This document shows positions 12,780 through 13,505 of a stretch of DNA of 64,000 bases, piece after piece. The translations under genes and the position numbers were made by a program. The DNA is from Candidatus Enterousia sp. (GTDB lineage: Bacteria > Pseudomonadota > Alphaproteobacteria > Rs-D84), in NCBI GenBank assembly GCA_045593065.1, contig JAZNVZ010000002.1:71183-135182 (forward strand). Reading direction: 5' to 3'. How positions within the stretch are numbered: the stretch's first letter is position 1; each line of letters opens with the position of its first letter. The notes beneath the pieces are model-generated. The model searched no databases and was not told the origin of the DNA. It worked only from the letters and a program-made list of their open reading frames with translations.

Positions 12780-13345
12780 TTTCTTGGCATTCCAATCGTC
12801 ACCCCGCCGCAGGGCGGGGCCCAGTTGGCGCAATGCGCCAACTTGTGTAATAAAGCAAAAAAACACAAGTTTTGCGGAACGCAAAACTGGATACCGCGCG
12901 TCCGCGGTATGACGGGACTGTTTATTCCCCCGCCACAAAATCGTCACCCCGCCGCATAATCGTCATTCCGGCGCATGCCGGAATCCAGTTTGCGGAGCAA
13001 ACTTGCTCACTTATTACACAAGTCCGCCTATGGCGGACTGGATACCGCGCGAAATTCGCCCACGAAAATTTGCAATTTTCGCGGGGCCCGAAACCGCGGT
13101 ATGACGATTCTGTGGCGGAATCATCAAAATTCAAATAACACAAAAAATATTTGTGATTATAATCAAAATATGATACAATACCCAGCGACAGGTAAGGGAG
13201 AAAACCAATGAAACCCGCAGACAACAAGTAGATGACGCAAACGAAGTTTGCGGAATCGTCACGGTTGCCCCGCAGTCACGGCGCCGGGAGCGCAGCGAAC
13301 GCAGGCGGACGAGGGAATCCTACACACACCTGGAAACGAACGGAG
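12780..13345. repeat. GC-rich cluster of short palindromic repeat units (REP/MITE-like) in an otherwise AT-rich intergenic region
   Basis: Recurring units: aatcgtcaccccgccgc (x2), ATTCCGGCGCATGCCGGAAT inverted repeat, tggataccgcgcg...cgcggtatgacg (x2), tttgcggaacgcaaa / tttgcggagcaaac, tgaaacccgcaga (x2); no credible ORF. Confidence 0.6.
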
Positions 13346-13381
13346 AGATAATTATGAACAACCTGAAACCCGCAGAACTCT

Positions 13382-13410
13382 ACACACACACACACACACA
13401 CACACACACA
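13382..13410. repeat. (AC)14 dinucleotide microsatellite, about 95 bp upstream of the 13506 ORF
   Basis: Perfect acacac... run of 29 nt; a shorter ACACACAC occurs at about 13321-13330. Confidence 0.9.
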
Positions 13411-13505
13411 AATAGATAACATCTATTGGATGACAGATTATTAATATCGACTGGGCGCGGATGCGTTCGGTCGATATTTTTTTACATATAACGAAAGGAG
13501 AAAAC

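Follow-up and report, generated by a model that had tools for sequence, protein, structure and literature searches.

The 64-kb stretch of Candidatus Enterousia sp. DNA analysed here (the window) contains a perfect run of 14 AC dinucleotides upstream of two tandem genes encoding related proteins of 120 and 290 residues, p120 and p290. We propose, at a probability of roughly 0.55, that this run is the slippage-prone core of a portable switch cassette that precedes surface-protein genes, and that at this locus it would act by leader/terminator attenuation of the p120-p290 operon. The proposal draws on the anatomy of the locus, on a family of related cassettes, on polymorphism in tract length and on a layout that is conserved across species, each of which can be seen directly in the sequences compared. 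Members of the order Rs-D84, to which the organism belongs, are gut bacteria with genomes of about 0.9 Mb; both Candidatus Enterousia and Rs-D84 as a whole are uncultured, and their dealings with hosts, phages and neighbours are little understood (PMC12306168). Contigs of relatives that were compared with the window carry L-numbers, and those termed sister strains (L001–L003 and L030–L035) are metagenome contigs chosen for an identical AccDA protein, and hence of the same species.

A first-pass annotation of this DNA, made from the sequence alone, had described a perfect (AC)14 tract ahead of a paralogous gene pair and suggested that it might be a phase-variation switch. The tract is indeed present, at 13382-13409 by direct reading and with 100% matches; Tandem Repeats Finder (TRF) reports it as a perfect (AC)14.5 at 13382-13410. 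It ends 96 nt before the p120 start codon at 13506, and the 64 kb contain no other di- to heptanucleotide repeat of note; its length exceeds that (about six units or more) at which a dinucleotide tract is prone to slippage. At this locus 14 units are found in the window, in L001/L030 and in L002, 13 units in L031–L034 (four assemblies from other samples, with flanks identical to those of L001) and 10 units in L003; one cassette locus from termite gut has n = 8, 13, 16 and 22, and another cassette locus has n = 10 and 22. The annotation had asked for a comparison of tract length among strains and would have taken an invariant length as grounds for abandoning the switch; since the lengths vary, the switch reading survives its own test, and alleles with the same flanks but 13 or 14 units, together with one of 10, bear out the description of the tract as a hypermutable contingency repeat. 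Contigs L031, L035, L041, L004, L018 and L021 start or end inside the tract, a pattern that is compatible with length heterogeneity without proving it. We consider it likely that the tract is a real contingency repeat, and that it acts through the translation frame rather than through promoter spacing. Because it lies inside an open reading frame (ORF), and because its sister copies lie mostly in the 5′ coding ends of genes, frame-dependent translation is likely, either as an in-gene frameshift or as leader/terminator attenuation.

The segment from the promoter-like sites to the end of p290 contains the following elements.

13135-13163, plus strand: second, overlapping promoter-like match (consensus scan)
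13151-13179, plus strand: predicted sigma-70-like promoter-like site TTGTGA-17-TACAAT with a TG extension (extended -10) (consensus scan)
13208-13231, plus strand: truncated first leader ORF, MKPADNK*, at the original leader start (comparison with L001)
13222-13376, plus strand: 155-bp insertion relative to sister strains, 60% GC, flanked by the 13-bp direct repeat TGAAACCCGCAGA at 13209 and 13364 (comparison with L001)
13354-13419, plus strand: leader ORF MNNLKPAELY(TH)4TNR*, ATG at 13354, with a Shine-Dalgarno (SD) sequence GGAGAG at 13342-13347, 6 nt before the ATG
13365-13381, plus strand: conserved 17-nt cassette flank GAAACCCGCAGAACTCT (cassette alignment)
13382-13409, plus strand: hypermutable (AC)14 tract (TRF, allele comparison)
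13410-13415, plus strand: A-A-A-TAG, a conserved A and then the stop that closes one frame right after the tract (cassette alignment)
13442-13444, plus strand: TAA that ends the third leader frame (in use at n = 12 or 15) and abuts the terminator foot (frame analysis)
13443-13483, plus strand: intrinsic terminator with a 16-bp stem and 4-nt loop (hairpin 13443-13478), followed by a T run (terminator scan)
13506-13868, plus strand: p120, 120 residues, with signal peptide, coiled coil, Gly/Ala-rich hydrophobic segment and second coiled coil; SD AAGGAG at 13495-13500
13872-14744, plus strand: p290, 290 residues, of which the N-terminal ~100 resemble p120 and are followed by a hypervariable C-terminal part

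Both promoter-like matches (13135-13179) are identical across all sister alleles, and the consensus scan revealed no other sigma-70-like site on the plus strand upstream of p120, including the interval between the tract and that gene. The tract lies 33 nt from the terminator hairpin and the hairpin 27 nt from the p120 ATG; the 96-nt segment between tract and ATG folds at -27 kcal/mol, nearly all of which comes from the hairpin. The hairpins of the window and L001 differ by a G-C to A-T change that is fully compensatory and by a second change that gives a G-T wobble. All three frames that leave the tract in the window are closed within 2–11 codons; two of the stops lie 28 and 24 nt short of the hairpin and the third abuts it. 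At 13417 a C-to-T change converts CAA, as found in L001, to TAA and closes the frame that reads through the hairpin in sister strains.

We infer from this anatomy, by analogy with the pil1 locus of Streptococcus gallolyticus, that translation of the leader would control termination. At pil1 a leader peptide gene carrying (GCAGA)n repeats is followed by a stem-loop terminator (Danne et al. 2014, PMC3894217); when the leader stop lies 39 nt before the hairpin expression is low, and when it lies in or near the hairpin expression is high, the ribosome preventing folding (PMC3894217). Both loci share the order of promoter, short repeat-bearing ORF with ribosome-binding site and ATG, stem-loop terminator, and SD and ATG of the operon; the repeat unit in both is not a multiple of three, the pil1 operon encodes a surface structure, and in both the frames differ in the distance from stop to hairpin. 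Read from its sequence, the window contains the parts that define a pil1-type attenuator, namely a predicted promoter-like site with an SD- and ATG-bearing ORF containing the repeat, an intermediate terminator and frame-dependent stop positions. The repeat is a dinucleotide of 13–14 units at the window locus and a pentanucleotide of 22 units at pil1, and the host is a Gram-negative, reduced-genome, uncultured alphaproteobacterium rather than a Streptococcus. Unlike pil1, the cassette described here is multi-copy, has a conserved 17-nt flank and occurs within genes as well.

The addition or loss of AC units would shift the leader frame and so move the position at which the ribosome stops. A stop far 5′ of the hairpin would let the terminator form and keep the p120-p290 operon low, and a stop at, inside or past the hairpin would block the terminator and set the operon high. 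In the window strain, n = 13 or 14 would place the stop 24–28 nt before the hairpin (24 nt at n = 14), with low expression predicted, and only n = 12 or 15 would bring it to the hairpin foot, with high expression predicted. Alleles of the L001 type would be high at n = 14, by read-through, and at n = 12 or 15, by a stop at the foot, and low at n = 13; it is because the C-to-T change at 13417 closes the read-through frame that the window is predicted to be low at n = 14. An attenuator of the His/Thr leader-peptide kind was also considered. It was rejected, since (AC)n can be translated only as Thr-His, the products of the genes downstream are secreted coiled-coil proteins rather than biosynthetic enzymes, and the reading frame of the motif differs among copies, with all three in use.

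Other species share the leader-plus-terminator layout. Orthologues of p120 from two other species (L041 and L042, 56–57% identity) are preceded by a promoter, a short ORF with a variant of the motif, a tract of 8 or of at least 10 AC units, and a hairpin with a T run. The same layout stands before another gene in L024, and in L029, where the cassette is on the minus strand, (AC)9 and a terminator precede a gene for a 206-residue, Opa-like outer-membrane beta-barrel protein that passes the Pfam thresholds for the OMP_b-brl and Opacity porin families. In L001, L041, L042 and L024 the same frame crosses the hairpin and stops 5–17 nt before the downstream ATG (17 nt before that of p120 in L001); in L029 and in the window a stop abuts the hairpin foot. 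Shuffled sequences would yield such a read-through frame with a probability of 0.11–0.22 per locus, and it is seen at four of five loci.

The tract is one member of a multi-copy family. The cassette, GAAACCCGCAGAACTCT-(AC)n-A-N-N-TAG, or close variants of it occur at approximately 27 distinct loci with n = 4–22. Its exact 25-mer GAAACCCGCAGAACTCTACACACAC is present at 14 loci in GTDB species-representative genomes, with up to four cassette copies per genome, and at 12 loci in metagenomes of the Joint Genome Institute (JGI). The hosts are metagenome-assembled genomes (MAGs) labelled Candidatus Enterousia, Alphaproteobacteria or Rickettsiales, from goat, horse and termite guts and other samples; a peptidase is 81% identical between the window and one of these MAGs. 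Three relatives picked up purely on protein similarity have the cassette, or a form of it differing by one to three changes, with (AC)10-20; and of the (AC)n tracts of at least six units in some 300 kb of related DNA, all adjoin the motif or a variant, save two cut by a contig end. Within the 64-kb window no further copy was found at up to three mismatches, and a metagenome scan with the locus-specific GATACAATACCCAGCGACAGG returned nothing. In sister strains the promoter is followed immediately by ATGAAACCCGCAGAACTCT(AC)n.

When copies are aligned on the tract, conservation stands near 2 bits at positions -17 through -1 and falls, with sharp edges, to roughly 0.2 bits farther upstream; as most copies were found through the motif, the upstream value is biased, and the edge itself is not. 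On the 3′ side there is an A at +1 (1.8 bits) and T and A at +4/+5 (2.0 bits), and nearly all non-redundant copies have a TAG or TAA stop at +4 to +6. The 17-nt flank is translated as KPAELY, ETRRTL or NPQNST depending on the copy, that is, in three frames, and its conservation must therefore be at the nucleotide rather than the protein level, which no account of the switch offered so far explains. A typical copy consists of an extended -10 promoter, SD, ATG, 1–12 codons, the cassette, a signal peptide and an ORF of 150–430 codons, so that most sister copies have the cassette within the 5′ part of a coding sequence, after the start codon of a secreted protein and before its signal peptide; sub-threshold matches to Listeria-Bacteroides repeats occur in some of these ORFs. 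Where a gene follows, only one of the three frames is open after the tract. Among copies with a recognisable start, five are in frame and 12–13 out of frame, each of the latter one or two units from ON.

In most copies, then, the cassette would by analogy be a classical coding-repeat switch like that of Helicobacter pylori oipA, which has CT dinucleotide repeats in its 5′ region (PMC10564699). Shared with oipA are a dinucleotide tract near the 5′ coding end of a gene for a secreted or outer-membrane protein and an ON state in one of three frames; the differences are that the repeat is AC and not CT, that it lies before and not within the hydrophobic core of the signal peptide, that the 17-nt flank is conserved across species and frames, and that the window tract lies outside the gene it would control. 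The opa genes of Neisseria form a multi-copy family with CTCTT repeats in the region encoding the signal peptide. They resemble the present family in being surface-protein genes with a coding-repeat switch of their own in each copy, and the L029 gene matches the Opacity porin Pfam family; the repeat unit, lineage and protein families differ. More tentatively, the flank, (AC)n and immediate stop may form a self-contained portable cassette under selection at the DNA or RNA level, a proposal that we think a good deal less likely to be right than wrong and that draws on the reading of the flank in three frames, its sharp edges and its sharing among species of termite, goat and horse guts.

Several observations weigh against attenuation of p120-p290 by leader and terminator. 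All of the compared sequences are assembled consensus. In L003 the same promoter and leader are joined to a different, full gene of the cassette family directly after the tract, and as that gene is not in the window, the window arrangement could be a deletion remnant; L031, from the same sample as L003, has the window-type arrangement, and two strains, a tandem arrangement and a misjoin are indistinguishable as sources of this difference. The window copy may also be decaying, the nonsense change closing the read-through frame and the 155-bp GC-rich insertion parting promoter from leader, and the switch may be weakened in this strain. The tract has been lost in a third group of p120 orthologues (L037–L040), a promoter of a type outside the consensus scan could lie downstream of the terminator, and the excess of read-through frames is modest (roughly p = 0.003 for four of five loci if these are independent, a requirement not fully satisfied in that three of the four positive loci are orthologous). 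Much of this would fit a locus that is a relic, in which the cassette is a 5′ end left behind when a family gene was deleted, the hairpin the old terminator of that gene, length changes are neutral and p120-p290 is transcribed by constitutive read-through or from an unrecognised promoter. We regard this as possible but doubtful. Early closure of every window frame, the L003 gene missing from the same locus here, and the combination of a nonsense change in the long frame with an insertion in the leader all point in its direction; so do the codons after the tract, I-D-N-I, which resemble the starts of termite-gut family genes (V-D-N-I), and the third frame, which ends in ...DY-TAA right before the terminator as a gene might. 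A relic would not, however, be expected to recur as the same layout before p120 orthologues of two other species and before unrelated genes in L024 and L029, nor to keep a perfect tract of 13–14 units across alleles (10 in L003) and a compensatory change in its hairpin, and the consensus scan offers no promoter-like site between hairpin and p120 from which the operon could be transcribed.

The comparison of L003 with L001 and L031, whose sequences coincide as far as the tract and are unrelated beyond it, with both forms in one sample, also lends itself to another explanation, that the 17-nt flank and tract are a patch of shared homology for swapping, deleting or duplicating downstream genes between expression sites, slippage being secondary. 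The sharp edges of conservation, a motif read in three frames and so conserved as nucleotides, and the half-motif duplicated around the insertion in the window are in keeping with such a handle for recombination. We nevertheless consider it improbable, since a promoter, SD and start codon accompany nearly every copy individually, and swaps would therefore change expression little; no promoterless silent cassettes are shown, identity spans just 45–60 bp, and one frame closed at once with one open is what a slippage switch needs. Least probable by far is that the tract alters the spacing of promoter elements and thereby transcription initiation, as in the (TA)n switch of the Haemophilus influenzae hif genes, which is of the promoter-spacing type. 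The position of the tract upstream of the p120 ATG is compatible with this class, which the first-pass annotation had suggested, but a switch of the promoter region did not hold up: no -35/-10 pair flanks or overlaps the tract, which is approximately 200 nt downstream of the only sigma-70-like sites on the plus strand and inside a short ORF with an SD, and in sister copies it lies in coding sequence. Leader/terminator attenuation, with the tract setting the leader frame, remains the reading that we prefer.

The GC-rich palindromes upstream of the promoter appear to be a separate matter. They lie at 12794-13120. The first-pass annotation had described a single GC-rich block of roughly 560 bp; this block is in fact two pieces, 12794-13120 (55% GC) and 13222-13345 (60% GC), separated by the promoter segment at 32% GC, in a window that averages 41%. 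The recurring units named in that description are all present: AATCGTCACCCCGCCGCA at 12794 and 12939, and a third time in variant form at 12958; the ATTCCGG-type inverted repeat ATTCCGGCGCATGCCGGAAT once, at 12965-12984; and the arms GATACCGCGCG at 12890 and 13041 and CCGCGGTATGACG at 12902 and 13094. Its remarks on likeness to RS3 and to repetitive extragenic palindromes (REPs) were apt as well, the units fitting the published definition of CGTC-tagged REPs, a class that includes Neisseria dRS3 (PMC3733652). Such REPs have an unpaired CGTC tag, an 8–9-bp stem starting with AT, a 4–5-nt loop and a 3-nt unpaired tail, mostly CCA (PMC3733652); they occur mostly in Alphaproteobacteria and include Neisseria dRS3 (CGTC-1) and RPE-4 and RPE-6 of Rickettsia conorii (Di Nocera et al. 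2013, PMC3733652). The cluster comprises the following units.

12797-12820, plus strand: REP unit 1, CGTC + ACCCCGCC-GCAG-GGCGGGGC, tail CCA; stem starting with AC, one mismatch (pattern scan)
12823-12843, unstranded: hairpin AGTTGGCGCA-A-TGCGCCAACT with conserved flanks CCAGT...ACTTG (repeat search)
12868-12888, unstranded: hairpin AGTTTTGCG-GAA-CGCAAAACT with flanks CAAGT...ACTGG (fold); a terminator-like site on the minus strand in the scan
12891-12914, minus strand: REP unit 2, CGTC + ATACCGCG-GACG-CGCGGTAT, tail CCA (12888-12890); exact fit (pattern scan)
12939-12957, plus strand: truncated half-unit AATCGTCACCCCGCCGCAT, a 19-nt tandem copy (TRF, period 19, 2.6 copies)
12961-12984, plus strand: REP unit 3, dRS3-like, CGTC + ATTCCGGC-GCAT-GCCGGAAT, tail CCA; exact fit (pattern scan)
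12987-13003, unstranded: hairpin AGTTTGC-GGA-GCAAACT (direct reading, fold)
13021-13039, unstranded: hairpin AGTCCGCC-TAT-GGCGGACT (hairpin comparison)
13039-13106, minus strand: REP unit 4, CGTC + ATACCGCG ... CGCGGTAT + CCA, its loop expanded by a nested hairpin at 13059-13085 (reading, repeat search)

All four units have the CGTC tag and the CCA tail, and the four AGT...ACT hairpins interleaved with them differ in their stems and keep their flanks. As a single strand, 12790-13125 folds at -95 kcal/mol, compared with -56.9 ± 4.2 in shuffles (z = -9.1). Shared with known CGTC REPs are also the 8-bp GC-rich stem, the 4-nt loop and the occurrence of units in opposite orientations, and the clustering and interleaving with other repeats are like those of Neisseria mosaic elements; the cluster is unlike known CGTC REPs in its very low copy number, with none of its units recurring elsewhere in the 64 kb, in the small host genome and in the one unit with a nested hairpin. 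Canonical CGTC units occur at other loci of termite-gut relatives (L018, and three times in L025). Assignment to GTAG-tagged REPs, which occur in termite-gut relatives, was rejected, the block units carrying CGTC and not GTAG, as was the identification of the AGT...ACT hairpins as integron attC sites, because their 7-mer core sites are wrong for attC and their length is insufficient. Sister strains have only unit 4 and about 228 bp less of the block with the same promoter and tract, and in L032 the whole block is replaced by other sequence directly 5′ of the promoter; since promoter and tract persist with less or none of it, the block is not part of the switch. It is a strain-variable passenger cluster of CGTC-tagged REPs that the switch does not need.

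Palindromes do adjoin the cassette elsewhere. In L018, L022, L025 and L028, all from termite gut, dense GTAG-tagged REPs (GTAG + GGGCG...CGCCC) stand directly 5′ of the switch motif, with no SD visible where they meet it, and in L022 a CGTC-type palindrome lies within the open frame after the tract, as Rickettsia RPEs do inside genes. A link between these REPs and the 'GTAG' often seen after the tract was dropped, no palindrome following that 'GTAG'.

The surroundings of the switch have been rearranged more than once. The 155-bp insertion cuts the original leader down to MKPADNK* and brings a new SD and ATG; it was not accepted as a MITE (miniature inverted-repeat transposable element), the flanks being a 13-bp direct repeat of the cassette motif, with no terminal inverted repeats seen on reading. 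An additional segment of about 130 bp with hairpins lies directly after tRNA-Ser in L001 (13722-13860) and is missing from the corresponding part of the window (~7690-7700); it shares CAACAAGTAGAT...AATCGTYACGGTTGCCCCGCAG...GATAATTAT with the 155-bp insertion, which suggests a second family of small mobile or recombining elements. In L032 (1-125) an unrelated ORF (MLTFAHRNEYEDMNYEEL...) takes the place of the REP block and the 81-residue genes, and its junction with the promoter, switch and p120 falls exactly at the edge of the block, which is thus a rearrangement point.

The genes that the switch would control had been annotated as tandem paralogues. Profile-profile comparison bears this out for the N-terminal ~65 residues (hhalign 96% probability, E = 2.5e-9), the N-terminal ~100 residues of p290 being homologous to p120; BLASTP detects the relationship weakly (E = 0.009). 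Between the window and L001, p120 is highly conserved, at 97–99% identity like the neighbouring 329-residue protein, and p290 (7016-7918 in L001) is merely 78% identical; the C-terminal part of p290 varies in length and sequence across species and is Cys-rich in most. Neither protein matched PDB sequences, Pfam and NCBIfam gave sub-threshold matches only, and the AlphaFold model of p120, built from 13 sequences, has a mean predicted local distance difference test (pLDDT) score of 49.5. One of the sub-threshold matches of p120, over the coiled coil and hydrophobic segment, is to the family of alpha-xenorhabdolysin binary toxin subunit A (E = 4e-6; 26 bits, where the cut-off is 125); the tandem arrangement of related p120 and p290 resembles that of binary toxin subunits, which is only a lead. 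The most that can be said is that they form a variable surface protein pair.

The rest of the window has a bacterial gene content, with an HU gene, scattered tRNAs and fused accD-accA, in which the two acetyl-CoA carboxylase carboxyltransferase subunits AccD and AccA are joined into one 579-residue protein (9676-11415, minus strand). Exact look-ups of five window proteins found no record for the 290-, 120-, 329- and 81-residue products. Rfam at gathering thresholds reported tRNAs only in the window, and at E up to 1 gave chance matches only in 12460-13560; a known RNA family for the switch region was rejected on these grounds. A phage origin was likewise rejected, a distant blastn search of a phage collection yielding tRNA-Pro as its single kind of match, and the cassette not being present in viral contigs. 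Within the 1-kb intergenic region, 12541-12700 on the minus strand forms an open frame some 53 codons long that lacks a start codon (...GYAVAPPKKVQDYWFDNPKYRIAMVQIDKHNSPITLA*), is 98.6% identical to sister strains and has no match in Pfam; it resembles the 3′ end left behind by a gene since lost. At 51000-54000, 3 kb stand out from the 41% average with a GC content of 33–35% and reversed GC skew, and may be foreign or on the other coding strand.

In conclusion, the coding-repeat switch and the pil1-type attenuator are known kinds of switch, and what is unusual here is that the cassette is portable and its flank conserved as nucleotide sequence, the latter being uncommon for repeat switches. 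So far, the description of a phase-variable attenuator of the pil1 type that we have found is for S. gallolyticus only; if our reading is correct, the leader/terminator form would extend it to a distant phylum. If the cassette is indeed selected as a portable unit, one module could bring any of the lineage's surface-protein genes under control by either leader/terminator attenuation or in-gene frameshift, and a dedicated factor may act on it, whether a recombination system that moves genes between cassettes, or a protein or small RNA recognising the flank or the tract length. The tract also breaks metagenome assemblies exactly at the genes that the cassette would control. A multi-copy (AC)n cassette before secreted, outer-membrane and hypervariable proteins would give Rs-D84 a contingency-gene system of the kind found in Helicobacter and Neisseria.

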